NCBI GenBank assembly: GCA_000091205.1
Contig: AP006502.2
Length of the DNA: 64,000 bases
Direction: 5' to 3' (one strand)
Source of the DNA: Cyanidioschyzon merolae
Taxonomy: Eukaryota
A model generated the notes under the pieces. The model was given only the letters and a program-made list of their open reading frames with translations, had not been told where the DNA came from and made no database searches. The translations under genes were made by a program, and so were the position numbers. Positions 5,559-54,897 of the stretch are shown here, piece after piece; position 1 is the first letter of the stretch, and the number at the start of each line of letters is the position of its first letter.

Positions 5559-6534
5559 GCGTCTAGCGAGTATCCCTTGTACTCAGATTTTCTGGATGTT
5601 GTCAGCGATGAGAGACGCTTTTCTTATTTAGATAGTTCTACGTTCCGCAAGGCACGGATCTGTGGTCTCGTCGGAACTGGGGAAAACGCTGTGTTCAAGC
5701 AGATAGATCGTGTGTCGGTCTTCTGTTAGCCTCTCGTTGGGCATGTGATCGAATCCTGATCGCGCGCGCGCGCGTGCTTAACAGGTAGGCCCAAACCTGT
5801 GGAGATGCGTTGACCGGTGACCGACACAGGCTTGTGTTCAGCTGCTGGACGATGTGGCAGCATGGGCGCTCTTTCGACTGGGAAAAGAGGGATGCGTGTC
5901 GGAGGAACGCAGTCTCGTGTAGATACACCCGTTGCTTCTGGAGGCTGCAGTATAGTCCAGCGCCGCGTGCTGGTCGTTTTCGTGGACGGGGCTGTACGGG
6001 GCTCGGAAATTGTCCACCAGTCGCTGTGTTTGTGCGATCGTGCGCATTTGCTAGGGAAGGAAGCGGATCATCGGGGGCACGGGCCGTGTCGATCGCGAGT
6101 CGATTTCAGGACATGCGAACACCCGCCCAGAACTTTCATGAATAAACCAGTCTTCATGTGCGAGCTCGGAGCGTCTAGCAGACACCCGGCCTCTATTCAG
6201 ATCGGGGCACGAGCCGTGTCGAAGTGATGCAGGGCTGCAGTCTCGTTCCGCTGACCCGCACCACGACCCGCGAGCAGCATCCATCACGGGAGCGCTTCTC
6301 AAGCCGACGCCTCCAGAGGTACGGCAGGCACTCGTCGCTCAATAGAACGTACGAAACGACCGATCCGTCTGAGAAGAAGTATGGGGAATGGAACTTGGGT
6401 GCATCGCAATGGGGGCGTTTTCGGAATGCCAGCAGCCATTCCTGCGATCTGCGAGACGCGAGCGCAATGATCTCGCAGCGCGCAGCGCATTGGGCGAGCG
6501 CTGCAGTTCGTGAATCCGAGTCGCTCGAAGCGTC

Positions 6535-7509: not shown

Positions 7510-10500
7510 CGCGGCGACGAGTTGGCGCTCGAAGCGCGTGGGACTTTGATTGACTTGTTCACGAGGAAACGCTTACGGCTACACAGCGGGGCTAGCAATG
7601 AAAGACGCCCAGCGGTCAGCCGCGTAGGTGGTCGTCTTCGTGCAGCAGCTACGAAAGACGGCTTGCTGGTCGAGTGTGCCAAAGCGCACCGTGCAAGAAC
7701 GCCGGAACGACGAAGCAACTGCAGGGCGGCAAGATATAGCGTCCTGAGGTGCACCGGCGCTCGTCAAGCCGGTGCCAACGAGCGCAATCTTCAATAAGGC
7801 CCCCGTATAGCACCCGCGCAAACTTTCGCTAAGCGCTTCGAGAATATGAGAGATGTTTGGGCTTGCGCTGCTGCACAGCGGCTCGATGCGGAACGCGTTC
7901 TGTGCGCAACGAACATCGCCTCGCTGCACACGGAAAGAACAACGAATCCAAAAGATGTAGCGAACTGAACGTGATCCATGCGAATATTAACAAACTAAAA
8001 TGATGCTAGATGGATGACACAGCGCGCAGAGGCTGCATCGCCAGGGCCGTTGCGCGCTACGTATCCGGGTAGCGAGGTCCGGGGAAATCGAAACGATGTC
8101 TTCCGTCCCTGGAAGCGTACGGGGTATAACCCGCCGCTGGGGCGCGGCTTATACCCAGTTGGACATCAAAAGGGACGCGTCCGATGAGATAACTCGGGCG
8201 AACACGCGGACGCTTGGTTCACTTGCCACTTCTGATGAACACCAGCCTATGTAGGCATTTTCTGCTACTGCTTCCGATGGATCTCTCTGATTTCAGGTCT
8301 TAAATGCGCAGATCTGCCACATGCCTCCAGCTCTGTAGTCAACCGTCGAAGGGTACTGGCGGCGGCTTTGAGGTCCCGATTTCGCAGCTTCCGGCTCTTG
8401 GCGACGCATTTGATGCATAGACGGGCGTGCCGATCGACACTTTGCTCCGATTTATCAATTGCTTTGTATACAGCTTCAATGCACCTTTCGCAGCGTTCAC
8501 AGTGAGCTTTGGTCAGGTGTTTTCATATGTCCATGACGCTGCTTCTTCCTGCTCCGAGCGTTCGCAAGTCGTGCATGAACGCGTGCTTCTCTGCTCGATC
8601 TATGCCTTTGCCGGGCACAGAATGCTCCGCTCGGTACCGTTTGCAATTCGGCATTCGGTGATGTCGCCGAAGATCACGAGCTTCGTCTGGGCATTCCCGT
8701 CGGCGAGTATGCTGTTCGCTGCACGCTCGGGCGTGTGCCTCTTCACTCGATAACTCAAGATCCGCTACCTCGTACGCGCTTCGTTTTCCGCGCACGCTTC
8801 CCATAGGACATGACGATGAGCGTGACGGACTCTGAGGCACCTGAACCACTCGTGGGCATCGTGTCCATACGTTCCACCGGCGTACAACAATGCGGACAAG
8901 GCTTCTGGGGCTCCCTTCTGCTTCGCGCACTCATCGGGCCACTCTGTCATTCGTTTATCTCCGCAAACACGAAGATGAGAGGCGCGCGAATACACCTCAC
9001 CATTGTTGGGGCAAGTCGGACGACTGGAAACTCGTTGCTCAAACCCGTTGCCGATAACCGCAAGTGGTCGGATTACTCTTCGGATCTCACGCAAAAGCAA
9101 GCGTAGAGGTTCTCTCTCCCTTCAGTCAGGCTTGTGCAGATCACATTGAAAGAAAACCAGTTCGCGAGACAATGCATCCGTATTGCTCGTTGTTCCTCCG
9201 TAAATTTCCTGTTCTGAGCAGGGGCACGTCTGGCCTCAGACAGATCCTTAAGCCTGCGGGATCTTCGCAGTTGCTGACGATGGATACGCTTGCGCTGGTG
9301 GTCTCGGCGGAGGACACGACGTCTCCTCGTGGTCGTGGTACTGACCTCTCGTTGCTCCGTTTCTCCTTCCCATTCGTAATTTCCCTCGCCTTTTGCCGCC
9401 AATTGTTCTTACAGCGGTTCGTGAGCGCCTTCGAATGTACTAGCGAAAGGTGCATAGTTCGCTTCATACCGTCCTTGGTCTTCATTCGCTGCGCATCTTT
9501 TTCGACACGCATGCTCCCCGATGGACGCCTCTGTCCTGCCGTTGGACGGGCAAACCCGTCCACAACGAATGAAAAAACAGAAAGATCGAGAACATGAAGA
9601 ATTTGTATTTAAAGACCGCTAAAATGAATCAATGAAGAAGCGTCAAGGCTTGTACGCGTGCATTGAATAATGGAGTCGAATACGTTGCGAACCCGCGGTC
9701 GCGGGCCTCGTGTGTCATCTTGATGACGGTTGCGTAACGAATTCCAATCGAAGAGCGTGTAAAGAACTACTCGGAAAAGTCGCTCAAGACTCCAAAAATC
9801 GGCCTATGAACCTATAAGCGCTCGTCACCAAACTTGCAGTGTCGAGCCTCTGCACCTAGGAAAAGTTCGGAGAAGCATCGCAAAGCACGAACGTAGCGTC
9901 CAGTTCGGCGCCCGTATACCCAATTGGACACGACTCAGATCTGTCAGGTTTGATCCATGAAATCCAATCTTCAACGCTTTCTCACGGTACACGCCAAGGC
10001 GTCAAGCTGGTACCGCGGGCATCGCGCGCGGTAGCCCAGCGCCCTGCACCGCGGCACGCCAGCGAGGCGCTGGTGGCAGTGCGCTGCTGCCTACGTGAGG
10101 CGGCGGCTGCACCGCTGCACCCGTTGGGCTGCGCGATCGGCATTGCAGCGAGCGCCCATTATCGGTGCGGACGCGCGCGCGCGCACACGCATTCGCCAGG
10201 GTGCCACGAGCCGGTGTTACCGAGTACCGGTGCGGCGACTCGACGCTTGTACTGAAGCCTTCGTATAGGCGCGCGAAGTGAACCAGGCCGATTCAGCCCA
10301 TATATCGCGTAACCTTGGCCTCGGTCACTGCTTTTTTTCGGTCTCTAGGGGCAGTGGTGAGAGCGGAAATACGACGTTCGCGGGCTGCTCGCAAGCGTTC
10401 GAGCGTTTGCGCTGCGTGCCTCGCCCAGCAAAGCGCGCACACCAAGCCGTGAGCACCGCCCCTCGGAGGTGATCATTAGCACTGCGCTTCCAATTCTACG

Positions 10501-12726: not shown

Positions 12727-12915
12727 TCAAAGCGTCTGGGCGTTGGGACCACGCTTCCTCCCTGGCCCCGTGGCGACGTTCACAAAACGGCGGTTGTACT
12801 TTGCTCTCAGGTTCGCTCTTCCGCGGGGCTTTTTAGGTTTCTCCTGCTTCGCCACTTTCGGGGTTTGTGCCTTGACCTTACCCGCACGCGCCAGTGATCC
12901 GTGAACCTTACCCAT
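12727..12915 (-). CDS. RPS30: 40S ribosomal protein eS30
   Basis: 62-aa ORF '[60 protein letters not shown]' is a near-perfect match to the conserved eS30 sequence. Confidence 0.9.
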
Positions 12916-12994: not shown

Positions 12995-13225
12995 CGCTGG
13001 TCCAGTAGCGCGGCGCGGCGTATTTGCCTAAATTCAACAAGTCAATTGACTTAAGGATCTGTTTTCGGCAGTGAGCGCTGGTGCAGCGCAGAAGCGCAGC
13101 GTATTTTCCCTAAATTCAACAAGTCAAATGACTTAAGGATCTGTTTTCGGCAGTGAGCGCTGGTGCAGCGCAGAAGCGCAGCGTATTTTCCCTAAATTCA
13201 ACAAGTCAATTGTCTTAGACAAGCC
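12995..13225. repeat. Tandem array of an ~83-84 bp unit, about 2.5 copies, each with the perfect 14-bp palindrome aagtcaattgactt; lies upstream of RPS30
   Basis: Units at 13019-13100, 13101-13184 and a partial 13185-13225: 'cgtatttTccctaaattcaacaagtcaaTtgacttaaggatctgttttcggcagtgagcgctggtgcagcgcagaagcgcag', with 2-3 substitutions between copies. Confidence 0.9.
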
Positions 13226-13679
13226 TGATGGTGCGCGACGTTCTCCGAATCGACGTCTCGGTAGGCGCACCTCCAGATCCGGCAGGCAGAGGACACGATG
13301 AGCATGCCGATTTCAAAGGGAAATACGCGACCCTGAACAATTGTCGATTTGCCGGGAACCAGCAGACATCGCGTTCGAAACATACACTGTTGCTGGTGCC
13401 GCGTTCCATGCAAGACGACGGCATGGCATGACAGCATCAAGCGTGCATCTCGAACGGACGCGGTGTATTTGCGTTAGAGGCATGGCATAGACTTCGACCT
13501 CGATGGTGTTCCACGCCCAGGTACGTGTCGTCAAATGCATTTTCGTGGTTTATATCAAACGCGTTCGTAGTGCGTTCATTTGAAGAAATCAATATAATCC
13601 AACGGATCTGGTAAGGACATTGGAAGTCGAGGATCCTCGAGGGCCGGGGGCCTCAGGCCTCAGGCACCGGAAAAGCAGA

Positions 13680-14115
13680 ACGAAAAATCCTCTCCTCGCC
13701 GACCAACGAGCGAAGAAAAGCAAGCGATGAAGGAGAAGAAGATGGGTGGTAATGGTCCAAAAAAGGTGTCCACCGGACTGGGCGATGATGAGACTGTCGT
13801 GGCACAGCGGGCACAAGTTCTAGCGATCCTCGCCATGACGAGTTCAGCCAGAGGCAATAAACACAGGAAGGTCGTGAGCCGCGACTTCAATGCCGTCATC
13901 AATATAAGATGATATGTAGTGCTGAGGACGAAAACTGCGGAGCTGACGCGTGCGAGCTTTGTGGGCCAGCCTTCTCGGCTCGAAGTGTGCCTGGATACAC
14001 TGAAGCCGATAGCATCGGGTCGGTCAGAAAAGTCTGGGAGGCATGTGCACATGGGCAGATATATTTACCTCCCATGGCCAGAGCGCGTTTCCCGTTATAA
14101 TGGCCGTGTGTATGA
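13680..14115 (+). pseudogene. 3' fragment of a TnpB/Fanzor-like element (copy 4): C-terminal RuvC-III region plus conserved non-coding tail
   Basis: Translates to '...GPKKVSTGLGDDETVVAQRAQVLAILAMTSSARGNKHRKVVSRDFNAVINIRRYVVLRTKTAELTRASFVGQPSRLEVCLDTLKPIASGRSEKSGRHVHMG'. This is homologous to the C-termini of copies 1-3, and the post-stop sequence is also conserved. There is no upstream part of the ORF. Confidence 0.7.
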
Positions 14116-14202
14116 AGGACTGTTTTCTTAGGGCTCGAATGGATACCGAATTCGTAGGGCCCTATCGTTCGCATGCGTGTCTGAACTAGCCCTCAACACC
14201 TG

Positions 14203-15402
14203 TATCAGCTTAAAATCGGATATTGTATTGCTCGCTCAGCGTCTGTCTTGCGATTTTTTCCTAGATGCATTCGATGTACAGCCTCGACAATCAGATTGCC
14301 GGAATAAACGGCCAAGCATGTATAGTACGTGATAGGATGCCCGGTTGCTTTTTCGAAGTGCCCCCGTTGACGCTGTGCCGCTGGCGTTCGTTACGTACCC
14401 GGAGACTCGCGATGATGTGCGACGCGTTCCGATCAGTGATTCCCAAAATCAACCGGTTCCATGATCAGGTTCATATGCACAAGACTGCGTGATACTCCGC
14501 TCCTGACATGTTGGACGCGCTTACCACGCATGCGTCTCTTTTTCGATATTGTCTGTTTCACGACAACTCGTGGGTGCAGCAACTCGTGCCGCTGGATTGA
14601 CGACGACGACGACGACGACGACGACGAAATAAAAAACTCCATGTCGTCCCTTGGCGACCATACAGAAGCTCATGCACAAAGTTGTACGGATTTGATGGTG
14701 TCCAAATCATCGACTCCGATTGAAAGACAGGTCTGCCTCTGCTTTGTGGCCGCCGCCGCCGCCGAGCCGGCACATGACTGACGCAAAATACCTCCCAGGG
14801 CGTGCGCTTCCACAGGATGCCGTCTCTTCCGTTTGCATAGAATCGGGTGCTGGGCTCGCACTCGAGCCATCGCAACGATCGCTTCCAGTGGAGCGTACGC
14901 CAGCGTCTTGCACGAAACGGGCGTAGATGGACCTGAGGAACTCGACTTGCTCTCCAGCGTGGATATTCCCTCCTGGACTCGTTTCGTGATGGACAATATC
15001 GCGTTCCACCAATCCTCTATCGAATGGAACGGCGAGCGCTTTCATGCGTAGCGGGCAGCGTTCTCGAACAGAACATCGCGCGGCAGGCGCCCGTGAACGT
15101 AGAACGCGACCCCAGGGTCGGCAAACGAGGATGGGATCGAGGCGAGCCTCCTGTTGCCGTCAAGGCCACGTGGGGAGCGATGAACCGAGCGTTCACGCGT
15201 CACGAGGCAGCGATCGGAGTGGCAGCTGTGGTGGTGAACAGGTGGCAGCACCTGACCACAGGCACGTGTCACTGGTGCGAGGGGCGCACAGCGACGCTGC
15301 ATACAAAGAAGACGGAACTGGCAAGCGCGGTATCGATTGCAACTACCGTCTACGTATGGAAAGCGTTGACATTAGCCGACTGCGGCGTCGTCGGGGCTTG
15401 AA
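14203..15402 (+). repeat. Repeat A copy 1 (~1.2 kb), contains (GAC)9; direct repeat of 16912-18200
   Basis: Near-identical over its whole length to 16912-18200. Starts 'cagCttaaaatcggatattgtattgctcgctcagcg', ends '...cgtcggggcttgaacgtc'. Its internal ORFs are split by a frameshift relative to copy 2. Confidence 0.9.
14598..14624. repeat. (GAC)9 microsatellite
   Basis: gacgacgacgacgacgacgacgacgac inside repeat A copy 1. Confidence 0.95.
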
Positions 15403-16176
15403 CGTCGCTGCCTCGCCCTCGATCGCCGACCTCAGCGAGCAAGCATGTGCGTCCGGATGCAGCCGTGTCCACTCGCCGCGCTGCGACACGCTTCGATGCC
15501 AAACCGGGTACTGTGCCCCATTAGAGCCCAATCAGCAACGCACCCAAAATCTCGCGGATGCTGCGCCCTGTAGGCTGGAGTCGGCCACAATGCAACGCAC
15601 CAACCTGGATGCGCTCGAGCATACGTGCACCCTTGGTGGCGTGCATCGGAAACGTCCACTGCGTATTTAGACAAACCTCAAATTCTGAGCATCGAGACAG
15701 GCCGAGAACTGCCAAAACATCGTAACTTGCAATGAAAGAAACTGTAATCTCTCGGCTGGCTGCCACCGCCAATCATCGCGCATTCCGGGATAATCTCATA
15801 GGCTGGTTCCCCGATGCTTCTCAAAGAATCCGAGCCAGGTACCAAGTGCGGCTGGCGCCAGATGCTCCATGGCCGGGGCGTCTTCATCGCACAGCGTGTA
15901 TGCAGCGACCGCACCGGCGCTATAGGCGCCATTGCTGTCGCTCTCGGCAGGCACTAGGCACACACGATAGGACGTATGAAACGACCAGAATATCCGAGAT
16001 GAAATATAGGTCATGTAACATGGAGGTAGGGGTTTGACAGATACCTCACCTCGCACTGAAAAAAAAAGCCAAAAAGAAAAGAAAAACGTGCATAATCGGA
16101 GAACGCTGGCCTATGGAAACGTTTCGTCCATGAAAAAACATCATTTGCCAGCGGACGCAGACGCCACAGACGTCCG

Positions 16177-16842
16177 ATGTTTCCTGCTTTGATTCGTGGT
16201 GCAGCGCGCTTCTCAGAACGTCTTCGGGGTGACTTGAGAAAAAAGATGCAGCACCAAGCCCCGAAGCCGCTGATTCTCATCGATATGGACAACACGATTG
16301 TATCATTTGACGACGCGTTCGTGAAACGCTGGAAGGAATTGGATCCACACGCCGACGAGGCCCTGATTCGGAAACGGCAGCACTTTGAACTCGAAGAAAA
16401 CCTGCCACCCGAAGCTCGGGCAATAGCGGAGAAAATCATGGGGGAGCCCGGGTTCTATGCCTCGTTTCGACCACTGGAAGGAGCTATCGTGGCCCTGCGC
16501 GCGATGATCGACCGGTCCTGGGAGGTCCGGCTGTGCTCGGCCCCGCACCCGCTACAGTGGGAAGACTGCGTGCGAGACAAGTACAGCTGGGTCCGCGAGC
16601 ACCTGGGTAGCGATTGGCTGCACCGCATTATGATCGTGCGTGATAAGACCTGTGTTCGTGGTTCTGTGTTAATCGACGACAAACCCAGTATATCGGGGTT
16701 CTATCCCGATCCCGAGTGGCTCCACGTCGTTTTCGATCAGCCGTACAACCGCGACGTGGAGGCGCGAGCGCGCCTGAGTCACTGGTCCCAATGGGAAGAA
16801 GTGCTTACACCGATCCTGAAGGCTCAAGGGTTTTCTGTTTAA
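16177..16842 (+). CDS. 5'(3')-deoxyribonucleotidase (NT5C/NT5M family, HAD superfamily)
   Basis: 'LILIDMDNTIVSFDDAF' is the HAD DxDxT motif. 'RLCSAPHPLQWEDCVRDKYSWVREHLGSDWLHRIMIVRDKTCVRGSVLIDDKPSI' aligns closely with the animal and bacterial NT5C core. Confidence 0.8.
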   Translation: MFPALIRGAARFSERLRGDLRKKMQHQAPKPLILIDMDNTIVSFDDAFVKRWKELDPHADEALIRKRQHFELEENLPPEARAIAEKIMGEPGFYASFRPLEGAIVALRAMIDRSWEVRLCSAPHPLQWEDCVRDKYSWVREHLGSDWLHRIMIVRDKTCVRGSVLIDDKPSISGFYPDPEWLHVVFDQPYNRDVEARARLSHWSQWEEVLTPILKAQGFSV

Positions 16843-16911
16843 AGAAACGGAGATGAATGGGCCCAGCTGGCAACGTTTGACCGGTGAGCGAGCCGGCTCT
16901 CCAGCTAGATG

Positions 16912-17303
16912 CCAGATTAAAATCGGATATTGTATTGCTCGCTCAGCGTCTGTCTTGCGATTTTTTCCTAGATGCATTCGATGTACAGCCTCGACAATCA
17001 GATTGCCGGAATAAACGGCCAAGCATGTATAGTACGTGATAGGATGCCCGGTTGCTTTTTCGAAGTGCCCCCGTTGACGCTGTGGCGCTGGCGTTCGTTA
17101 CGTACCCGGAGACTCGCGATGATGTGCGACGCGTTCCGATCAGTGATCCCAATATCAACCGATATCATGATCAGGTTCATATGCACAAGCCTGCGTGATA
17201 CTCCGCTCCTGACATGTTGGACGCGCTTACCACGCATGCGTCTCTTTTTCGATATTGTCTGTTTCACGACAACTCGTGGGTGCAGCAACTCGTGCCGCTG
17301 GAT

Positions 17304-17345
<42 letters not shown>

Positions 17346-18200
17346 AATAAAAAACTCCATGTCGTCCCTTGGCGACCATACAGAAGCTCATGCACAAAGT
17401 TGTACGGATTTGATGGTGTCCAAATCATCGACTCCGATTGAAAGACAGGTCTGCCTCTGCTTTGTGGCCGCCGCCGCCGCCGAGCCGGCACATGACTGAC
17501 GCAAAATACCTCCCAGGGCGTGCGCTTCCACAGGATGCCGTCTCTTCCGTTTGCATAGAATCGGGTGCTGGGCTCGCACTCGAGCCATCGCAACGATCGC
17601 TTCCAGTGGAGCGTACGCCAGCGTCTTGCACGAAACGGGCGTAGATGGACCTGAGGAACTCGACTTGCTCTCCAGCGTGGATATTCCCTCCTGGACTCGT
17701 TTCGTGATGGACAATATCGCGTTCCACCAATCCTCTATCGAATGGAACGGCTAGCGTTTTCATGCGTAGCGGGCAGCGTTCTCGAACAGAACATCGCGCG
17801 GCAGGCGCCCGTGAACGTAGAACGCGACCCCAGGGTCGGCAAACGAGGATGGGATCGAGGCGAGCCTCCTGTTGCCGTCAAGGCCACGTGGGGAGCGATG
17901 AACCGAGCGTTCACGCGTCACGAGGCAGCGATCGGAGTGGCAGCTGTGGTGGTGAACAGTTGGCAGCATCTGACCACAGGCACGTGTCACTGGTGCGAGG
18001 GGCGCACAGCGACGCTGCATACAAAGAAGACGGAGGCGGCCTCTGACCGCAGGCACGTGTCACTGGTGCGAGAGGCGCACAGCGACGCTGCATACAAAGA
18101 AGACAGAACTGGCAAGCGCGGTATCGATTGCAACTACCGTCTACGTATGGAAAGCGTTCACATTAGCCGACTGCGGCGTCGTCGGGGCTTGAACGTTGCC
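16912..18200 (+). repeat. Repeat A copy 2 (~1.29 kb), contains (GAC)13 and an internal ~65-bp tandem duplication
   Basis: Direct repeat of 14203-15402. (GAC)13 sits at 17304-17342. The 65-bp unit 'ctgaccacaggcacgtgtcactggtgcgaggggcgcacagcgacgctgcatacaaagaagac' occurs twice (17981-18045 and again to about 18105). The internal 175-aa ORF is continuous here. Confidence 0.9.
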
Positions 18201-19390
18201 ATCAACACGCTTACAATGCGAACAATGGAACTAGAGCGGAGGGAATGACCAGCGTATTTCGTACGGGAACTAGGAGACAGGAGACGGAAGCAGTTGCAGA
18301 AATACCCCGCAAAGGCTTTTACTGATAATAATGGGAGAATACCCAATTGTAGCGTGTACGTCCTTGTTAGCTTACCAGTTCCATTTCATTCTGGTATGGA
18401 TGGAGACGGATACCCGTGGCGTCATGAAATGACGCCAGCGACCCCAACAGCATCTGCTGTGCAATCATGGCAGGTTGAATACAGGTTTACCGCTCGGTTT
18501 GGCCAGCTGGCTCCGATGCTGACGTACACCGTTGGCCATTCTTCGCGTGATGTCGAGCCTGAAGAGGCAACACATGAGGCGCCCCTTCTGCTCAGCAGGA
18601 CGCCTACGGGCGTCTGATGCGCGCGCACCAGGGAGAAAGCGCCGCCCACAACGGCGGCGATGGAAGCATGCGCTTCGCTTTCGCAATCGAATATGCTTAT
18701 AAGCAAACGGGAACGCAGCATCGGTATCGCCACATCAGTGCACGCGTTCGTTGTCACTGCAGAGACGCACCCGGCGCTGGTGGAATCGCAGGCTCAAAAC
18801 TCCGTTCGACATGCCCTGGAAACGTTTTTGCCAACGTGGATTTGCTTCGATACGGATGCACGCTGCCAGTCCACATGCAGGAGCTATCGCGCCGGGCATA
18901 ACTTGCACGACGAAGTGACACCAGCGTCGATTGCCAGTGATCAAGTCGCATCACTGGCATCCATCGGCTGCCGCCAAAAGACGAACCCAGAGGGTCCATC
19001 CGGCAAGAGACACGTATTTGATGCCGCAGCTCTGGACAAACGCCCTTCTTCGCCGTTCAGTGCTTGCATTGCGAATCTTACAGCGGGGTATCACTGAAAA
19101 CCTCGAAACAGGCGAATAGATTTAAGATGGAGTCCTCGACAATCAGCTACGCGAACAAACACTCGTACAGCACTGGAAGGCCCTTGCACTGCTGCTTCCT
19201 GTCATTTCGTGCGATGCCGGTTGCAGCGTCCACGGCCAGCGAAGCAAACGCCAGAGATACCCGCATCTTCATGCGTTCGGTGTGATCGAGAGCGTCGTCC
19301 GACAGCCAGCATGGAGCATTGAACCTTGGCGTTGCGTGGCAGTGCGTCCAAGGTCCATTCCTGCGCAATTACCAACGACCCGGAAGACCA

Positions 19391-20260
19391 TTACGTTATC
19401 GTACAGGTTGAGCAACCAACACGCCCATTCACCGCTGCTGTGTTTGGCGCATTTGTCTCTGCAACGTGTGCACTTCGTTGCGATCGAGTCGAACGAGTCC
19501 CCGAGGTCGAAGCGCGCCCCGCCTGCCGAGACGCTACCTGTCTGTGACTGCGTCGATGACGCCGTTCCGCTTCCGCGCCTGCTGCTTCCGAGCCAGGCAC
19601 CCGGTTTCGCGACGTGTTGTGCGAACTCCATAAATACGAGACAAAATTCGAGCCTAGCGGGTGCTGCGGCGACGATGGAGGCTGGGACCGAGAGCCCGAC
19701 TCCGTGGCCGGTCGAGTGACAACGTGTACCGTCTGACATAAGCCCACCTGAAAGCCGCACTCGAGAAGCGTGTCGGTATCCTCGAGCACGTTGCCGAGAT
19801 ACAGAATACGCAAGTCCGACGCGGTTGAGCACGGTGGCTGGTGGAGCACTCGGAGCTGTTCGAGGAGCTCTTTTGGCTGTAAAGCTAGGAGCGCCTCTTT
19901 CACTTGACCTATTGTCGCATAAACAGGGAAAGATACCGAAAACGCATCGCCATTCACGCAGAGGAAACGAACCTTGGTCGTCTCTAGTGCAAAAGTCCCC
20001 GGTTGCAGAACTTGCTCCGAACTCAAGCGCGCAGGCACCGTAGCTGTCACTTGTGCCTGCTCCGCTGCGTCCTGATCCTTGTCAGAGCTCGGCTCGCTCT
20101 CCATGCCGCCAGAGCCGCAACGTCCGGCGCGCTTCGCAGCGTTCCCTGTACCAAGCGAGGTATCCGAGGTGAGCGACGCGCAACTGGTGTTTTCCGCAGC
20201 AGGTCGGCGCCCTTGGTTTTCCGCGCTACGCGGCGTCTCTATTTCAAGAGCAACCTCCAT
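19391..20260 (-). CDS. ubiquitin-fold (UBL) domain protein, possibly MUB-like with C-terminal CTIT
   Basis: The central 'VRFLCVNGDAFSVSFPVYATIGQVKEALLAL...LRILYLGNVLEDTDTLLECGF' reads as a beta-grasp ubiquitin-like domain. The ORF ends with Cys-x-x-x (CTIT), a weak CaaX candidate. Confidence 0.4.
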   Translation of the reverse strand: MEVALEIETPRSAENQGRRPAAENTSCASLTSDTSLGTGNAAKRAGRCGSGGMESEPSSDKDQDAAEQAQVTATVPARLSSEQVLQPGTFALETTKVRFLCVNGDAFSVSFPVYATIGQVKEALLALQPKELLEQLRVLHQPPCSTASDLRILYLGNVLEDTDTLLECGFQVGLCQTVHVVTRPATESGSRSQPPSSPQHPLGSNFVSYLWSSHNTSRNRVPGSEAAGAEAERRHRRSHRQVASRQAGRASTSGTRSTRSQRSAHVAETNAPNTAAVNGRVGCSTCTIT

Positions 20261-24686: not shown

Positions 24687-24977
24687 GACCCTTTTGTATG
24701 GTACGTGGCATCGAAGCACAGGTCGCGGCGGATGCCGAGATGCTCCTCGCGGCATCGAGGCGTTACGACGACCGCGAATACTGAGCACGATACGCCTTTT
24801 GTGATGATGTATCGTCCGCTCTGTGTGCAGCGTTACGCGAATATGATGTGTGGTGTTCTTTATGACTCGCAGGGGGACCAATGGTGATGACTGGTGATCG
24901 TCACATTCATGAATGGGAAACTGCCGCCATCGGGCGGGTTGCGTAAACGCAGGTATCCATGCACGCCGCTGCATGCC

Positions 24978-25135
24978 CGCTCTTGTGACGTGCTCGAGCC
25001 AGATGGGTATCACCACACGATGAATGTCGATGATGCCACAAATCCGGTTCAGCATACTCGCTCTTGTGACGTGCTCGAGCCAGATGGGTATCACCACACG
25101 ATGAATGTCGATGATGCCACAAATCCGGTTCAAGG
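24978..25135. repeat. 84-bp tandem duplication (2 copies) in the intergenic region between convergent genes
   Basis: 'cgctcttgtgacgtgctcgagccagatgggtatcaccacacgatgaatgtcgatgatgccacaaatccggttca' is repeated at 24978-25061 and 25062-25135. Confidence 0.9.
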
Positions 25136-32194: not shown

Positions 32195-34700
32195 ACGTTG
32201 CCGCCAGCAGCGGTATACAGTGGTGGCGCGAAGCCCGCCCTAGACAAGAAGTCTCCAACTGACGTGCAAACGCCTCCCAGTCTTTTTGGACCGGCCACCC
32301 ACTGCTGCTTTCAAGTTCTTCTCATATCATTCCACTTTGAGAGGTTGTCCAACAAAATTCCATCTTGTCAACTCCGGAGGTCTTCTTTCCATGGCCGCGC
32401 ACCTCTTTATATTGATAGCGGCGTTAGTCACGATTCACAAACTCCATACGCTTCTTGCCATTGATTGTACTAACCAGTGCAAGGAGTCCTCGAGCTTTCG
32501 CCCTCCTTTCCATTTGCTCTTCCGTCAGTGGTCCGTACCTTTTTATATCCTCAGGGCTCCGTTGGCACTTTTCCATCTCGAGCCTCTGAAGTATACACCC
32601 CAGTTCATGGTGTGTATAGGACGTTCGGAACTCATCTACAGGTATCGTAACGAAACGCCGTGCACACTCCTTGTCCACCCTCGTCGTTGGAGCTGGTGCA
32701 CACCCCTTTTGGGTCTTCCATCGGCCTGCTCCGTACGCTACTACGAGCCTCTGACTTTCATTCTCCTTCAGGGCGCTCAACTCATTGAAAATTTTCGCGA
32801 ATGCACGTTGCCTCCCACCGTATAGATTCATCCGCAGACGAGCCCACCGGGGCTTTCTACACTCCTCCCACAGCGCATCCCAATACGCAACGCGAACTTC
32901 CATGAACTCTCGAAAAGCTTTAAAGTCCGCTCCGCGGCTCGTCACCTCGCTCAAAGCCTCCAGGTGATCCTTCATTCCTGCGTTCCACGTCTCAATTTTC
33001 TTCCTAGCATTCATGATACCGGATTCTCGATAGTATCTTGCTCTCGAGAATCTCAACAGACGCATGTCCTTCTGACGTAATTTACCGTCAGTACCATCTT
33101 CCGCACGCTTGAGTGCTGCGATGGTTATGATATTCGTGTTTCCGAGGTCCGCGCCAACGACAAAGTCGTTATCCTGCACTTTCTGCGTCGCAAGATCCGC
33201 CTGTTTGTTTTTTCATGCTTGGTCATGGGCAGAACTGGACGATCCACCTTCAACCGCCGATAGTGTACACACATGGCTACTCCATCGGTTTCGGTCATCC
33301 CACTGAATTTCTTTTCCCTGCTTACTTTGAGACGTTTGATTTCGAAGATGTTCTTCCAGTAGGTCTCACAGTTTTCACCGGAGAACTCCTCCCTGTTAAC
33401 ATTGGACTCGGGACTGATCTCCCTCATGATGCCGTAAAGGATTCTGGAATCGATAGTCACAAAACGTGACTTGATGTTGGACAACGGAACGACGTTGAAG
33501 CGCTTACCCAGAAGCGCAGCCTTTCGTCTCCCCCACTCTTCATTTTTTCCTCACTCAGCTTCATCTCTGCCTTGCGTTCGAGTTCACGGTCCAGAAACAC
33601 AAAGTAACGCAGGACGAGGCGATAGTATCTTTCGTTATCTTTTTTCAACTCTGATATGTTTGCTGCTCGGTTTGCCAACCCCAGTACCGCACGATGCTCT
33701 TGTATAGCCGCTCGGATGACGGAATCCTCATTGATGCTCCTGAGTGATTTCTTCTCGTCGATGAATTCAATCTCATCTTCACGCTTGCGATCGTTCGTGT
33801 TGCCATTGACAATCGCCCATATCCCCTGGCGAATGAGACCGGGGTAGAGTGCAAAGATGGAGCGTATCATGAAGCTTTTGAGGTTCATTGTTAAATGGTT
33901 CTTTAGACTGGTGAGGTACTTCATCGCCCCGTAGGTGTAAATATTCCAATCCCCCCTGTATCGAGTACCGTCGAAGCGGAAGTCGGCGTAAATTTTGTGG
34001 AGGGCATGAACTCGCTCATTTCACCTAGACGTTTCCCCGGTGCCAAGCATAAAGTGATAAATAAAGGTTTTGTTGAAAAATTCTTCCAGAATATGGACTG
34101 TTTTGATGTCCGTAACGTCATGATACCATTTTCTTAGGAAATCCACCATTCCTTGAGAAGCGTCACGAACACCGCTGGAGTTCGGCTCGACACGGTTCCA
34201 GATTGCCTCTTGAACGTTTTCCCTGTACGGATCCTTGGTATGTTGAAGAAGACAGGCTTTCACCGCCATCTCGTCGTACCGTCGTCTTTTGTGTAGCCTT
34301 TGACGTAGGGCCTTCCACTTTTACTTCTTCTTCTTATCCTGTTCCTTTGCACTTGGCACTGTTCTTCGTTGTTTCGGGCTGCCGGCGACATTGGCGCCCA
34401 GGATCCTACACTTCCACTTCCGTAACTTTCCTTTTTCAATATAAAAACCGAAACCACTTTGGATGGGACAGCTATTACGCACGAAAAAGCACTTGAATAC
34501 AGTAGAGTGAAGGTTGAAACACGATTGAGGACAAACAATGTATTTTTCTACGACTTGAACATCGTTACAATTTGTACGTTAGAGCTACACGCTTCATTTT
34601 TCCGATGGAAAAACACTTATATTGACAATGGATCCCAGATTGTGCTATGAATGGGTATCGGATTCAGCGAAAGCGTCCATCATGCTGCATCCTAACTCCA
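32195..34700 (-). mobile_element. TnpB/Fanzor-like element copy 1; ORF broken by several frameshifts
   Basis: Minus-strand ORF pieces 34269..34021, 33924..33457, 33484..33125 and 33179..32424, plus a frameshifted tail to about 32275, are co-linear with the 757-aa copy-3 protein. The '[15 protein letters not shown]' RuvC-I-like motif is intact. The RuvC-III region 'RD*..NAAINI' is disrupted by a 2-nt deletion. The 5' leader and the 3' post-stop tail are both conserved with copies 2 and 3. Confidence 0.75.
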
Positions 34701-35269
34701 GATTCCATTACGTATACTTCCTTTCAGATGTACTACTCGTCTCGTGCTTCCTGTCATTCGCCGGGTGCATGCGTTGATGCACACGCCTTAGCGTCTAATC
34801 CGCTGATGCCGATGAATCACAGAGACAGGACAGCGTTGCCGTACTACTGAGAGCGTCGGATCGAGGAATGCTCCACCTGACACAGAGTTGGAGTATAGGA
34901 TCATTCTGGGAGCCAGCAAGCTCCGCAGACAGACACACTGCCTGCGATAGCGTGAAGCTCTATACTAGGACTCCACCGCGACCAGATCGACGCCCAGATG
35001 CAGTTTAACTGCCGCTAGTACCAGAATAAACTGTGCTTCAGACGAATTGCTCAGATTTCTATGCAGCACCCGCCACTGGGTGGCGAGCACGAAGCACGTG
35101 CCTGGGGTACTCGTCTGGCTCGCGGGTTTTTCCGTCGAGAAAATCAACTTTCGACAAAACGGGAACCGTTTCCCCCTTTTATCGTTTATCGTGCAGGGGA
35201 GATAAATTGGGGTACCTTGCTAGTTAATGGTTAGTCTCTGTTCTTTGCTCCGTATGCTGCGGTCGGCTA

Positions 35270-37770
35270 GCGCGCCGGGGAGATCAGGTCGTACGAGACA
35301 AGACGCACGTGTCGCCGTTGAAAGGAGACGCGAAATTGTGAAAATCCGTTTTCTTATTGTTCTACCGTACAAGTTGTATTTGCGTTAAAGTCGTAACAAA
35401 GTAAAGTTGTTTCATGCAATTGTGTTTCAAACCTCAAGTAAGTGTATACAAATGATGTTTAGCGATTCAGATCAGAAGCGTTCAAAGAGCCTTCTTCTTC
35501 TTCAAAAATAACAAAAGTTATGGAAAAGAAACTGGAGGATCCTGGACATCTGGTGTCGTCGACTGCCGGAGACTAACGAAAAACATGGCGGAGCTAAAAG
35601 GAACATGAGAAGACGATGGAGCAAAAGAGGGAGGCCCGAGGTAAGAAGCTGAACGAAACACGACAATACGACCATATGATGGTGAAAACCTGTCTTCTCG
35701 GGCATATCAAGGATCCGTCCAGGCGAAAGCTGCGAGAGGCCATCAGAAACCGTATCGAGTCATACTCCATGAGTGTTATGATGGCTTCTGCAGGTATAAT
35801 GCATTCGGTGAAGGAGATGCACGACGACGTAACGGGCATCAAAACAGTCGAGGTTCTGGAAGAATTTTTCGGCAAAACCTTTATTCGTCACCTGATGCTT
35901 GGTACAGGGGAAACGTCGAGGAGAAATGAGCGGGTGCATGCCCTCCACGAAAATTACGCCGAATTCCGCTTCAACGGTCCTCGAGACAGGGGTGACTCGC
36001 GTATTTACACCGTCGGGGTAATGAAGCACCTCACGAACCTGAAGAACTATTTGACCATGAACCTGGAACGTTTCATGATACGCGCCGTCTGTGCGCGCTA
36101 CCCGGGCCCCTCTCGCGAAGGGATATGGACCATCACCGATGGCATCACAAACGATAGTAAGAATGAGCAGGAGATCGAATTTGTTCACGAGAAGACATCA
36201 CGCAGGAGAGCAAATGAGGATTCTGGAATCCGTGCGGCTATTAAAGAGCATCGTGTGGTCTTGGGGCTGGCGAGTCCAGCAGGAAAGATATCAGAGTTGA
36301 AAAAAGATACGGAAAGATACGATCGCCTCATCTTGCGCTATACCATACTCCTGAACCGACAACTGAAATGCAGGACCGATATGGAGCAGGGTGTGGAAGC
36401 AAATGCAGTGTCGGAGAAACGGAAAGCTGCGCTTCTGGAGAAGCGCTTCAACATCGTTCCGTTATGCAACATCAAGTCACATTTTGTGAGTATCGACTCC
36501 GAAATCCCTCACGGCATCATTACGGAGATCTGTCCAGTGTTCGATGTAAGCAACAAGGAGTTCACCGGTGAAAACCAGGAGACGTACTGGAAGAAGAATA
36601 TCTTCGATTCCAAACGTCTCAGAACGAGCAAGAAAAAGGAATTCACTGGGATGATCGAAAGCGATGCGATAGCCATGCGTGTACATTATCGGCGCTTGAA
36701 GGCGGATTGCCCAGTTCCGTCTTCGTTGCAGTCGCTGGCAAAGCGTGAAGAAAACAAAGAGGTTAGCCCAACGAAGCAGGAGGTGCATGAGAACCACTTT
36801 GTCGTTGGCGCGGGCCCTGGGAACACGAATATCATGACCATCACAACACGCAATTGCGGGGATGATGGCATCGACGGCAACCTACGTCAAAAACACATGC
36901 GTGTTTTAAAGCGCTCAAGAACGAGATATTACCGAGAATTCGGTGTGATGAATGCAAAGAAGAAAAGTGGAACGTGGAATGCTGGAGTAAAAGAGCACCT
37001 GGAAGCGATCAGCCAGGTGACGGGCCGAGGAGCGGACTTTCTAGCTCTTCTGGAGTTCATTAAAGTTCGCGTTGCACATGACGTGGCACTGTGGAAAGAA
37101 TATACAACGCCTCGGTGGGCTCGTCTACGTACGAATCTGTACTGTGGAAGAAGCGTGCATTCGCCAACTTTTTCAATCAGTTGAGCGCCCTCAAGGACGA
37201 CGAGAGGCAGAGGCTCGTCGTAGCATACCGATCAGGGCGCTAGGCGTGGAAAAAGGGACTACCCGAGCTCCAACGCCGAGAGCGAACGAGAAATGCGCAC
37301 CCCGTTTTGTCACGATACCTGTAAATCAGTATCGAGCATCGTATGTGCACCATGAGCTGGGGCGTACACTCCAGAGGATCAAGAAGGAAAAGTGCCAGGG
37401 GAGCCCCGGGGATATAAAAAAGTACGGAGCGCTAACAGAACAGCAAATGGGACGGAGGTCTAAAGTTCGAAGACCCCTGGCATGAACGAGTACAGCCAGT
37501 AACGGCAGGAAACGTATGGCGTTCGTGAACCGAGACTTTAACGCTGCTATCAATATCAGGAGATATACGCTGCTAAAGAAGAGACCCGACAAGCTGACGC
37601 GAGCCAGCTTTGTGGAGCACTCCCTCAAGACCGAACTGTACTAGGAGAAGCTGAATCCAGTAGCAGGTGATCGGTCCAGAAAGACGAGGATCCGCCTGCA
37701 CGTCCGCAGATAAACATGCAGTCCGAGGGCGCGAGGTACCCAGAAACACACCGACGGCGGCTGCGCACGC
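35270..37770 (+). mobile_element. TnpB/Fanzor-like element copy 2; frameshifts plus an in-frame TAG
   Basis: ORF 35616..37184 continues, after a 1-nt deletion, into 37072..37485, and after a further shift into '...GRKRMAFVNRDFNAAINIRRYTLLKKRPDKLTRASFVEHSLKTELY'. The RuvC-I position reads '[11 protein letters not shown]' (Asp to Gly). The 5' leader starting 'ggagatcagg...' and the 3' tail are shared with copy 3. A (gcgtgcaat)3 run lies at 37785-37808, just outside the element. Confidence 0.75.
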
Positions 37771-53577: not shown

Positions 53578-54897
53578 GGGGTACGGCTGCGGCATCCTCC
53601 GCATCTGGGGCAGCGTAGGGCGCGCGGTGAGCGGCCTGCGCGCGATCCGCCCATCGATGATGCTGGTGCCCCAGCGCTGTCTGTGTGCTGTTTCCGACCT
53701 ATGGATCGCAATGGAGAAACTGAAACTCATGAGACATGAATGTATATTACAGTCATGCGTGCGCAAGCTCGGCGCTGACCAGCGACGCTGCCGGTGCTGC
53801 GCAGCGTCCCCTGGAGCGCGCGAAAGACGCTCTGTCTTCGAGTTACATCGGCATGAACAGTGTAGGTGGTATTGTGGATGCAGTGCGGCAGGTGCTCGGT
53901 GCACAGTGGAACGCATGAAACGACCAGTAGATTCGCGGGGCAGTATTGGTCATGGAACGTGAAGGTGGAGTGCAGCATGCAGGGCGCTTTCCCGGATGCA
54001 GGTATTCATTACGCAAGCCGGGACCCGTGGTCCACGGAAACCTTTTGTTTAACGAGAGAAATTGACGGTGCAAACCAGCACGCGATCCTCGTCTGCTTTG
54101 CCTCGCAAAATGGGAGTAACGACATGCGGGTATATCAACAACACGTCGCTATCTTGCTGCTACGTTCCGGATATTCATTCGTTTGCTTAACTTACCACCA
54201 TTCGATCATCGAAATTCGCTTGAACAACAACACGTCGCTATCTTGCTGCCACGTGTTTCCCGCTTCGCATATTACAACGCACCGTATGGCAGGCGACGAC
54301 GCTGTGCCGCTTATGCAGTCAGTACCGCAAGGATGCCCAGACCTGCGGCAGGCACACAACGCGCATGACGCGCTAAACTTGCAACTAGAGCATCTTCCAG
54401 CGGCTAATGAATGCCCCAAAGAACAGGTCCAGGGAACTCGTGGCGGCCGCGGTTGCATGTGCACATGCTGTAGTAGCGCGGAGGATTGCGGTGCGCTCGG
54501 TGCTGGTTGCCTGCGCACCCTGCCACCAGTGCAGCCACCACAACTTGTCCATGGCATCTGTGCGAGAACACGTAGCACGCGGCCGCCTTGCCTATGTGAA
54601 ACCGTTCATTGTTTACGGCCAAAGTTTCGAAGAAAGATGGTGAACCGAGACTCGCTGAAGCACATCGTTTCTTTCTCCAGACCAGTACGGAGACGATGTC
54701 GCGACGTTCATGAGCTGAACAACTCCAGCAGTACCCAGGATGCTCCGTGGCACCCTTGGAAACGCGGGCCATTGCCGCTGACGTTGCGAAGACGCCAGGG
54801 TCCGCATCCGCACGCCAGCGAGCAGCGAACTCTAGACGTGCTATTTTCAAGCAGGCGCTGGCTACAAGAGACCGCATCCCGGTACGGGCGCTTCGCT

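Follow-up and report, generated by a model that had tools for sequence, protein, structure and literature searches.

Direct repeats around a deoxyribonucleotidase gene of Cyanidioschyzon merolae as probable relics of an old, dispersed IS630/Tc1-mariner-type transposon

Figures often quoted for the genome of Cyanidioschyzon merolae are eight class II elements and a transposon content of only 0.7%. Nozaki et al. (2007; PMC1955436) described eight transposase-related elements, termed class II, which were nearest to bacterial transposases with weak E-values, and no LTR elements were found in the genome. Two further families, CMe-1A (Fanzor1) and TE-N2_CMe, were described by Bao and Jurka (2013; PMC3627910) as old and dispersed, with copies ~80% identical to the consensus and with target-site duplications that could not be determined.

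The window analysed here, a 64-kb stretch of chromosome 20 of C. merolae 10D, holds three CMe-1A copies and an additional relic of that family (element Y), as well as a pair of direct repeats, termed repeat A, that bracket the NT5C gene CMT031C. The A family is likewise old and dispersed in the same genome, but it appears to be the relic of a DDE transposase and not of a TnpB/Fanzor nuclease, and it gave no match to the CMe-1A copies. Weak similarity to bacterial transposases, as reported for the eight class II elements, is the look expected of a decayed IS630-like family, although this likeness does not establish shared membership; the presence of at least three A copies in the 64-kb window suggests that there are more than eight genome-wide. 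Our reading of the locus, to which we give a probability of about 0.78, is that two dead copies of one old, dispersed IS630/Tc1-mariner transposon flank a gene that never moved, and that gene conversion has kept these copies nearly identical.

The repeat pair and its dispersed family

The two repeats lie in the same orientation, 2.7 kb apart, and span 14206-15408/15411 and 16913-18199/18202 (Table 1). The original prediction had placed them at 14203-15402 and 16912-18200, of which the pair itself stood and the bounds were refined. At aligned positions the copies are 98.9% identical, with 14 substitutions and 3 indels in 1,203 bp, and the differences are clustered, with six of them falling within 45 bp and none over a stretch of 550 bp. 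No further near-identical copy was found in the 64-kb window. The left edge of copy 2 is situated 70 bp past the NT5C stop codon.

Table 1. Positions of the features at and near the CMT031C locus, numbered from the first letter of the window
Feature	Position	Strand	Basis or remark
Third A-family copy, old and rearranged, in the SOD-FGase spacer	8236..9911	-	nhmmer and profile match
Element Y, internally deleted Fanzor1 CMe-1A relic adjoining copy 1	13480..14100	+	nhmmer and motifs
Repeat A copy 1	14193..15411	+	3'-truncated A-family member, putative decayed Tc1/mariner-IS630-type transposon
(GAC)9 microsatellite, copy 1	14599..14625	+	TRF
Unique spacer (mid), copy 1 to element P	15412..15911	.	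nhmmer
Element P, ~230-bp dispersed repeat directly upstream of the NT5C start codon	15912..16140	+	invariant 37-bp core
CMT031C, 5'(3')-deoxyribonucleotidase, 221 aa	16177..16842	+	Pfam NT5C, exact protein match
Repeat A copy 2	16913..18431 (end approximate)	+	full-length A-family member, ~1.5 kb
175-aa poly-Asp ORF	16972..17499	+	apparent chance frame across the N-terminal, HTH-bearing portion of the dead transposase
(GAC)13 microsatellite, copy 2	17305..17343	+	TRF
DDE catalytic-domain remnant, copy 2 (...RKIPPRACASTGCRLFRLHRIGCWARTRAIATIASSG...FVMDNIAFHQSS...)	17438..17760	+	tblastn of consensus peptide
73-bp tandem duplication, copy 2	17962..18107 (units 17962-18034, 18035-18107)	+	units 93-94% alike; TRF

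Three copy-specific differences had been noted from the sequence beforehand. The unequal (GAC)9 and (GAC)13 runs were recovered by TRF, and the predicted frameshift corresponds to a 1-bp indel (14440/17146) by which the 175-aa ORF of copy 2 becomes two ORFs of 75 and 106 aa in copy 1. The tandem duplication specific to copy 2 is also present, with a measured length of 73 bp in place of the 65 bp first given; in strain L001 it sits in the upstream copy and not in the downstream one. The (GAC)n tract ranges from 7 to ~13 units across strains and is missing, as an alignment gap, from the old A-family members. Translated in the ancestral transposase frame, the copy 2 tract gives poly-Thr; the frame of the 175-aa ORF gives poly-Asp. 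The difference in (GAC)n length, a (GCC)n run and the 73-bp duplication would all represent later replication-slippage events. The 175-aa ORF gave no Pfam match and its exact sequence was missing from the protein collection, the frames and lengths of the repeat A ORFs vary between copies and strains, and the ancestral transposase frame in this region is a different one. On sequence evidence, this poly-Asp ORF is a chance open frame and not a conserved gene.

Diverged A-family copies were located at no fewer than four other loci, in addition to a third copy within the window, which agrees with the possibility of further copies raised by the original prediction. Full-length diverged copies were found by nhmmer flanking CMT302C and a zf-CCCH gene, partial copies were found near GLTP and at 8.2-9.9 kb of the window, and one copy adjoins PRPPS in metagenome contigs; of 10D itself, the search covered this window. 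The copy within the window consists of two pieces, 8236-8753 (query positions 823-1413) and 9634-9911 (profile positions 500-783). Full-length members measure 1.26-1.5 kb, lie at no fewer than five loci, in either orientation, and have common ends. Pairwise identities among five of them are 55-58% and star-like in pattern; neither 3-periodicity nor a bias towards in-frame indels was seen. Repeat A belongs to a dispersed family with a full-length member of ~1.5 kb. Scans of the region for tRNAs and against Rfam (E up to 1) gave no match.

With a profile made of the diverged members only, copy 1 matched over 14193-15435, corresponding to profile positions 473-1706, and copy 2 matched profile positions 483-1888, with alignments extending to 18403-18454. 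Both copies begin at the family 5' end, and copy 1 is without the 3' 200 bp of the family. Scored alone, the flank to the right of 15411 in copy 1 had no significant A-family match, whereas the copy 2 tail past 18202 is family sequence that is missing from copy 1; the segment 18203-18311 alone scored 13 bits, as against at most 1.9 bits in 150 random segments.

The transposase relic

The majority consensus of the five full-length copies matched Pfam DDE_3 (E = 1.1e-8, 35.5 bits; cut-off 28.6), and a 209-aa reconstruction of the transposase matched it again (E = 4e-8), with a weak, sub-cut-off match to HTH_Tnp_Tc3_2 (E = 0.035, 14.8 bits) lying N-terminal of DDE_3. The consensus contains the motifs IDET and MDN...HKS, and an AYSP remnant of PPYSPxxNPIE. 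A database relative of 261 aa (P0325; PF13358), 36% identical over 98% of the query (E = 1e-25), carries the corresponding motifs DETGF, LMDNIAFHKS and PPYSPWFNPIK; against the PDB this relative gave weak matches to the Mos1, Tc3 and SETMAR transposases and a weak match to the Tc3 DNA-binding domain 1u78 (E = 0.045). Pieces of the same DDE domain are kept in four independent old A copies. The remnant in copy 2 was aligned by tblastn to the consensus DDE peptide with 65% identity (E = 2e-42), copy 2 itself being one of the five inputs to that consensus, and its counterpart in copy 1 lies at ~14720-15042. The region of the first catalytic Asp in the remnant is overwritten by the (GCC)n run.

All A-family copies seen are dead, and the two at this locus are full of stops and frameshifts. 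The frameshift-joined translation of the window copy gave no significant Pfam match, and the individual repeat ORFs on both strands gave only sub-threshold noise (DUF7107, MCP1_TM, Plavaka). Protein-like ORFs on the minus strand of the repeat were considered and set aside as the antisense of the transposase relic. At the consensus termini, 19 of 26 positions agree between the left end and the reverse complement of the right end, a score equalled in 72 of 2000 shuffles. A TA dinucleotide adjoins the left end of copy 1 and lies near the right end of copy 2; its presence is inconsistent in other members, and the exact termini are not fixed in the old copies. On the basis of the five-copy consensus and the database relatives, the A family is a probable relic of an IS630/Tc1-mariner DDE_3 transposon. 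The mobile-element origin suggested in the original prediction is upheld by a consensus that restores a transposase, and the same consensus of diverged relatives gives the repeat a recognisable family, where none had been seen for its internal ORFs.

The nucleotidase gene and its neighbouring elements

The 1.5-kb segment between the copies contains a 221-aa ORF whose protein is identical to BAM83061.1 (CMT031C), and the proteins of the window also match CMT030C and CMT032C of C. merolae 10D exactly. The assignment of an NT5C-type nucleotidase was confirmed by a full-length match to Pfam NT5C (PF06941; E = 1.1e-21, 77.9 bits, profile positions 2-174 of 180). Its closest resemblance had been expected to be to animal and bacterial enzymes, but the nearest homologues are red-algal, with identities of 76%, 55%, 49% and 47%, and bacterial proteins reach 43% at most. 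In a related species used as the outgroup the gene order is SOD-FGase-S30-NT5C-UBL-Aldedh, the spacers around NT5C measure 1.0 and 0.9 kb, and neither A-like DNA nor a direct repeat was found; in 10D, ~1.2 and 1.06 kb remain when the repeats are subtracted. Because the S30-NT5C-UBL order is found in a repeat-free related species and the nearest homologues are red-algal, capture of the nucleotidase is rejected. CMT031C is, to judge from these comparisons, a resident gene at its ancestral position, and the horizontal origin that had been entertained for it gives way to a vertical phylogeny with red-algal neighbours, an outcome that the original prediction had itself named as counting against its reading.

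For the unique spacer between copy 1 and element P, the sole nhmmer matches were those at the orthologous position of L001 and L012, and it is probably native S30-NT5C spacer DNA. Element P forms the left edge of a block that is common to other loci in wild contigs. Element Y retains the sequence ...SRDFNAVINIR, which is RuvC-III-like, and by nhmmer it matches each of the window's three Fanzor copies at both flanks, these copies being 2.4-2.6 kb long and of the described CMe-1A family (PMC3627910); a Pfam search of Y for a TnpB relic gave no match. The enlargement of the spacers around NT5C is explained by the A insertions, the Fanzor relic Y and the short element P together.

Near identity, rearrangement and known systems

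A full-length element lies downstream of CMT031C and a 3'-truncated copy occupies the upstream spacer in the same orientation. Under the reading that we favour, the two would exchange sequence by gene conversion, giving 98.9% identity between them despite 55-58% to other members. Gene conversion is, we infer, the most likely cause of the near identity. Between 10D and L001 there are seven AABB sites, at which the paralogues agree within a strain, and one ABAB site, at which the orthologues agree, with six of the seven AABB sites inside one 80-bp patch and with L001 being a metagenome assembly that may merge variants of both copies. However the copies arose, so many more AABB than ABAB sites can be explained only by exchange that postdates the separation of the strains. 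The near identity could otherwise reflect a recent duplication without transposase, in which only copy 2 is original and ~1.2 kb was re-copied to a site 2.7 kb upstream, too recently to have diverged; ectopic double-strand-break repair, template switching or single-crossover integration of a circular A-plus-gene intermediate are possible routes. We consider this unlikely, even though the 98.9% block has sharp edges at both sides, significant family homology is lacking to the right of the copy 1 block, and the divergence of 1.08% between the copies resembles, and is no greater than, the between-strain divergence of the unique flanks (1.2%). It also gains from another direct A-family pair, 3.0 kb apart around CMT302C (L016), which is 56% identical and has not been homogenised, so that proximity alone does not force conversion. 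Against re-copying, the block begins within ~1 base of the family 5' end, an improbable breakpoint for a random duplication, and the profile match of copy 1 starts ~10-13 bp further out than that of copy 2 (473 versus 483). Since this extra outer stretch holds a CACCTGT motif common to other members, copy 1 seems to hold terminal family sequence that is absent from copy 2. The segmental duplication listed in the original prediction, taken as a simple tandem one, is likewise an incomplete account: related copies exist elsewhere, copy 2 reaches the family 3' end and the left edge is the family 5' end.

It has also been proposed that the A-gene-A arrangement is a mobile composite or LTR-like unit that carries or captured the nucleotidase. 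In favour of this, both repeats belong to a single transposon family and flank the gene as direct copies, their outer ends (left for copy 1, right for copy 2) make up a complete pair of termini, and the P-NT5C-A block also adjoins PRPPS, GLTP and the X locus in wild contigs. The arrangement is nevertheless very improbable as a mobile unit, with an ancestral S30-NT5C-UBL position shared in gene order with the repeat-free species, a vertical gene phylogeny, and copies that are full of stops and frameshifts and of which one is without an end. Where the wild contigs have alternative junctions, these fall within a shared repeat, either the 37-bp core of P or the body or tail of A, and not at element termini, and no target-site duplications were found at them, which points to homologous recombination or assembly ambiguity and not to transposition. 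Neither is the LTR-like version supported, as reverse transcriptase, gag/pol and LTR features are all absent, each repeat is itself the body of a DDE-transposase element, the interior consists of the host NT5C gene and spacer, and the bounds of the repeats are unequal. That the reference holds a repeat collapsed or wrongly joined during assembly has a negligible probability. Repeats of such size do break short-read assemblies, but nothing specific speaks for this here, the copies are distinguished by the 14 substitutions and 3 indels, and the reference sequence of 10D is finished (PMC1955436). The A-gene-A layout was moreover assembled independently in two metagenome assemblies (L001 and L012), and is therefore not an artefact of the reference.

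In wild relatives the NT5C-plus-A block abuts PRPPS (BAM83125), which is 64 genes away in 10D, and this suggests a repeat-mediated rearrangement, with assembly ambiguity as the alternative. Wild contigs also carry an 80% form of the tail ('tail-prime'). In a search for the reciprocal junction of an inversion, seven UBL contigs ended exactly at the right edge of A, and where a gene-less S30-A-UBL deletion allele was sought, wild contigs broke inside the repeat. Two hybrid contigs (L004 and L034), each from one sample only, were rejected as proof of a mobile block because the switch falls inside 37 bp that do not vary among the P copies; both contigs may be chimeras of the assembly. The A elements would have no present function, and their likely effect would be as substrates of homologous recombination with each other and probably with the related PRPPS-side copy on the same chromosome. 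The recombination cassette of the original prediction survives weakly in this form, in that the copies would exchange with each other and probably, in wild strains, with a third copy near PRPPS. Tentatively, natural populations of Cyanidioschyzon might have an active recombination hotspot in repeat A. If so, exchange between copy 2 and the inverted PRPPS-side copy, 64 genes off on chromosome 20, would give a large inversion polymorphism or a second nucleotidase block, exchange at the 37-bp core of P would connect the block with loci of two further chromosomes, and structural variation in this genome, well known for being simple, would be driven mainly by dead transposon relics.

For annotation, the locus is best given as two probable Tc1/mariner-type relics that flank a native nucleotidase gene, with no gene assigned to the 175-aa ORF. 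The A family adds one old repeat family to this genome and supports later work on its underestimated repeat content. Genetics in C. merolae depends on efficient homologous recombination, and direct repeats of 98.9% identity could delete or rearrange CMT031C by this route. Structural differences that set wild hot-spring populations apart from the laboratory strain may likewise have their basis in these repeats.

Several known systems provide a comparison. The variants shared within a strain and the mosaic differences resemble concerted evolution by gene conversion, as known for duplicated genes and for the LTR pair of a single element, but here they come from one reference and one metagenome assembly, and the CMT302C pair of the same family is not homogenised. 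Bacterial composite transposons and LTR retrotransposons likewise have direct repeats of one family that bracket a gene, whereas at this locus the cargo would be a native gene, the flanking copies are non-functional and unequal, and there is no hallmark of a reverse transcriptase or LTR. From typical IS630/Tc1-mariner elements (DDE_3, PF13358; HTH_Tnp_Tc3_2) the A copies differ in being dead, in falling below Pfam scoring in the window and in having TA duplications and termini that are not fixed. Their ends may be inverted-repeat-like, and they resemble these elements in their dispersed copies with shared ends, in a size of ~1.5 kb that lies within the range of about 1.3-2.4 kb for the superfamily, and in a single transposase frame on one strand.

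The repeat flanking the nucleotidase gene

Three ORFs in the window, encoding ribosomal protein S30, an NT5C-type 5'(3')-deoxyribonucleotidase and a UBL3-like protein (Table), were found by protein comparison to match exactly proteins of C. merolae 10D from the 1,621,617-bp chromosome 20. The paired, near-identical copies that the original prediction placed around the nucleotidase gene were confirmed with small coordinate corrections, and form a direct repeat of ~1.2 kb (A1, 14206–15408/15411; A2, 16913–18199/18202). Global alignment of A1 with A2 gave 14 substitutions and three indels, namely 1 bp at 14440/17146, four additional GAC units in A2 and a tandem duplication in A2. TRF analysis bore out the predicted (GAC)9 versus (GAC)13 difference as well as the presence of the duplication, whose unit is 73 bp and not 65 bp. 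The same repeat-gene-repeat arrangement occurs in L001 and L012, two independent metagenome assemblies from close relatives, and the structure is therefore real. An identical 62-aa S30 was also seen in another neighbourhood (ribosomal S12/S23, EF-Ts and a DNA polymerase subunit) on contig L050, presumably from another species sharing this protein.

The predicted frameshift in A1 was likewise found: because of the 1-bp indel, the 175-aa ORF of A2 is split in A1 into ORFs of 75 and 106 aa. This ORF overlaps the N-terminal part of a transposase relic, and the (GAC)n run encodes Asp in its frame and Thr in the ancestral frame. ORF frames and lengths vary between copies and strains, and the exact 175-aa sequence is absent from the protein collection. 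The poly-Asp ORF is a chance ORF.

Table. Features of the nucleotidase locus and related loci (positions in the window unless a contig is named)
Feature	Position	Strand	Remarks
P copy	6321-6403
A-family copy, third, old, rearranged	about 8236-9911	minus	SOD-FGase spacer
S30, CMT030C	12727-12915	minus	identical to 10D protein
82-bp tandem repeat	13013-13217		2.5 units, 95% identity; upstream side of S30; frequent breakpoint of wild contigs
Element Y	13480-14100		directly left of A1; nhmmer match to both Fanzor-copy flanks
(GAC)9 microsatellite	14599-14625		A1; TRF
Element P	15912-16140		dispersed, about 230 bp; just 5' of nucleotidase start codon
Nucleotidase, CMT031C	16177-16842	plus	identical to 10D protein; Pfam NT5C, E = 1e-21
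(GAC)13 microsatellite	17305-17343		A2; TRF
73-bp unit, two copies	17962-18104		A2; TRF
UBL3-like protein, CMT032C	19391-20260	minus	identical to 10D protein
81-bp tandem pair	24971-25132		near 25 kb; 97.5% identity; separate from 82-bp repeat
Fanzor1-type copy	32222-34811	minus	2.4-2.6 kb
P copy	34599-34811	minus
Fanzor1-type copy	35361-37724	plus	2.4-2.6 kb
P copy	47597-47695
Fanzor1-type copy	48322-50950	plus	2.4-2.6 kb
P copy	53861-54052
P copy	58618-58757	minus
A-family direct pair around CMT302C	L016 5474-6732, 8463-9735		3.0 kb apart; nhmmer
A-family inverted pair around zf-CCCH gene BAM79320	L030 10625-11910, 15978-17254		nhmmer
A-family copy, partial	L026		between GlnRS and GLTP; nhmmer
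A-family copy			beside PRPPS; nhmmer
NT5C-A joined to PRPPS, ATP sulfurylase, CNNM	L001 10737-12490; L018-L025; L035-L041		wild Cyanidioschyzon contigs
Hybrid of GLTP locus (1.28-Mb chromosome) with P-NT5C-A	L004 8200-8600
Hybrid of H3-variant/zf-CCCH locus (528-kb chromosome) with P-NT5C-A-PRPPS	L034 4290-4600

Extent and identity of the A family

Searching with nhmmer, using A2 plus its right flank as query and recovering the other loci from metagenomes, revealed diverged, nearly full-length relatives (query positions about 1–1415) at other C. merolae loci, some of them in pairs that bracket other genes, and repeat A belongs to a dispersed family. The members of the CMT302C and zf-CCCH pairs are only ~56% identical to each other, unlike those of the NT5C pair. 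A profile built from the diverged members only matched A1 at 14193–15435 (profile positions 473–1706) and A2 at 16910–18403 (483–1888), and both copies therefore start at the family 5' end. A2 reaches the family 3' end and A1 stops ~200 bp short; scored alone, the A2 tail to the right of the shared block gave a significant family match and the flank right of A1 gave none. Because A1 is short and A2 full length, the 1.2-kb "repeat" is the overlap of one truncated and one complete member. Five full-length members show 55–58% identity in all pairwise comparisons, with neither three-base periodicity at variable sites nor an excess of in-frame indels, a pattern that fits copies of one ancient burst in neutral decay.

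The ORFs inside the repeat had been described as lacking any recognisable family. In the majority consensus of these five members a plus-strand reading frame is restored. A 121-aa piece of the consensus matched Pfam DDE_3 (PF13358), the IS630/Tc1-mariner-type DDE transposase domain, with E = 1.1e-8 and 35.5 bits against a curated cut-off of 28.6 bits. The consensus ORF upstream lies in the same frame with one stop between, and the joined 209-aa reconstruction again matched DDE_3 (E = 4e-8), preceded at the expected position by a weak Tc3-type HTH match. In a database search the reconstruction matched P0325, a 261-aa PF13358 protein, with E = 1e-25 and 36% identity over 98% of the query; the P0325 motifs DETGF, LMDNIAFHKS and PPYSPWFNPIK align to IDETAF, FIMDNIAFHKS and AYSP of the consensus, and P0325 itself gave weak matches to the solved structures of the Mos1, Tc3 and SETMAR transposases. 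Fragments of the DDE domain are kept in four independent old copies. The window's own copy has lost its score against the Pfam transposase model; in A2 a frameshift lies between its HTH and DDE regions. A strain-variable (GCC)n run of 4–5 units (14749–14763 in A1, 17467–17481 in A2) replaces the first catalytic Asp region (IDET) of the ancestral transposase. The family ends in inverted orientation are alike at 19 of 26 positions, which 3.6% of shuffles equal, and no TA duplication could be fixed at the ends of these old copies, a difficulty that Bao and Jurka (PMC3627910) also met with the old CMe-1A family of C. merolae. The best explanation of these sequence data is that A1 and A2 are relics of an old Tc1/mariner-superfamily transposon beside a native gene.

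Origin of the nucleotidase gene and neighbouring elements

The original prediction placed the nucleotidase nearest to animal and bacterial enzymes and considered its capture or carriage by the repeat. Neither idea held: among the homologues of CMT031C the best, at 76% identity, belongs to a related species of the Cyanidiales, and next come those of Erythrolobus (55%), Timspurckia (49%) and Porphyridium (47%), with bacterial homologues at 43% at most and no paralogue found in C. merolae. The closest relatives are thus red-algal. Contigs L007–L010, which carry the 76% orthologue and one protein clustering with Cyanidiococcus yangmingshanensis, share the gene order of the window (SOD, FGase, S30, NT5C, UBL, Aldedh), and neither A-like DNA nor a direct repeat was detected in them by sensitive BLASTN and family-profile search. 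Their spacers flanking NT5C measure about 1.0 and 0.9 kb versus 3.3 and 2.5 kb in 10D; subtracting the repeat-derived pieces leaves about 1.2 and 1.06 kb in 10D, near the outgroup lengths. The nucleotidase gene is a resident, not a captured gene.

Three further repeats in the window, 74–83% alike and two of them head to head, encode Fanzor1/TnpB-like proteins that are interrupted (522- and 569-aa ORFs), with a RuvC-I motif, and with ADEFRTSY and VNRDCNAAIDIRK in downstream frames; Pfam gave no match. They are assigned by sequence to CMe-1A, a Fanzor1 family in C. merolae (Bao and Jurka 2013, PMC3627910). Element Y, which combines the 5' and 3' flanks of these copies, has no ORF and keeps "...SRDFNAVINIR", looks like a CMe-1A relic with an internal deletion, and the order Y then A recurs at the H3-variant/zf-CCCH locus (L030 9479–11910, 66–70% identity). 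Element P has an invariant 37-bp core, CACGATAGGACGTATGAAACGACCAGAATATCCGAGA, and precedes several unrelated genes at short distance, in most cases oriented toward the gene (NT5C, H3 variant, ATP sulfurylase, L11 and one Fanzor copy; also beside GLTP and an ORC4-like gene). Rfam returned nothing for P, which may represent a short element that carries a promoter, or the 5' portion of a TE family already known.

Likeness of the two copies and possible rearrangement in wild relatives

That A1 and A2 were kept or made alike through homologous exchange is the best explanation of their similarity. Two insertions in direct orientation 2.7 kb apart would be homogenised by gene conversion. Inside the overall explanation, we prefer this at odds of about 3 to 1 to the alternative that 1.2 kb of A2 was recently re-copied. 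Between 10D and L001, seven sites have both copies of one strain agreeing and differing from both copies of the other, although six of the seven lie inside one 80-bp patch and L001 is a short-read metagenome assembly; the sole site that groups copies by position is at the extreme block edge. This count speaks for gene conversion, which also draws support from the A1–A2 divergence, at 1.08% no greater than the 1.2% between strains in unique flanks, and from the patchiness of the differences, with six within 45 bp and none over 550 bp. On the same side, the 73-bp duplication lies in L001 in the opposite copy from 10D, and the family match of A1 starts about 10 bp farther out than that of A2. In favour of re-copying are the sharp block edges, the lack of detectable family sequence right of A1 and the analogous pair around CMT302C, which is not homogenised.

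Many samples contributed to a set of more than 12 metagenome contigs in which NT5C and A are joined to PRPPS, the junction running through a tail paralogous to that of A2 (80%). In 10D, 64 genes separate the nucleotidase from PRPPS (BAM83125), ATP sulfurylase and CNNM, which are on its chromosome, whereas the 123-kb L001 has the order S30, A, NT5C, A, PRPPS, ATPS, CNNM. This order is compatible with an inversion between A2 and an inverted family copy beside PRPPS, and equally with a second copy of the NT5C-A block; UBL contigs from seven samples terminate exactly at the A right edge and S30 contigs just inside A1, and short reads therefore do not decide between the two. L004 and L034, from one sample each, both switch from their native locus inside the 37-bp P core, and may represent real ectopic recombination or assembly chimeras. 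None of the PRPPS, L004 and L034 junctions falls at an element terminus, so they give no indication of transposition. As a product of genome decay the A1/NT5C/A2 arrangement is ordinary, and only the structural variation that the repeats may mediate in wild populations merits follow-up.
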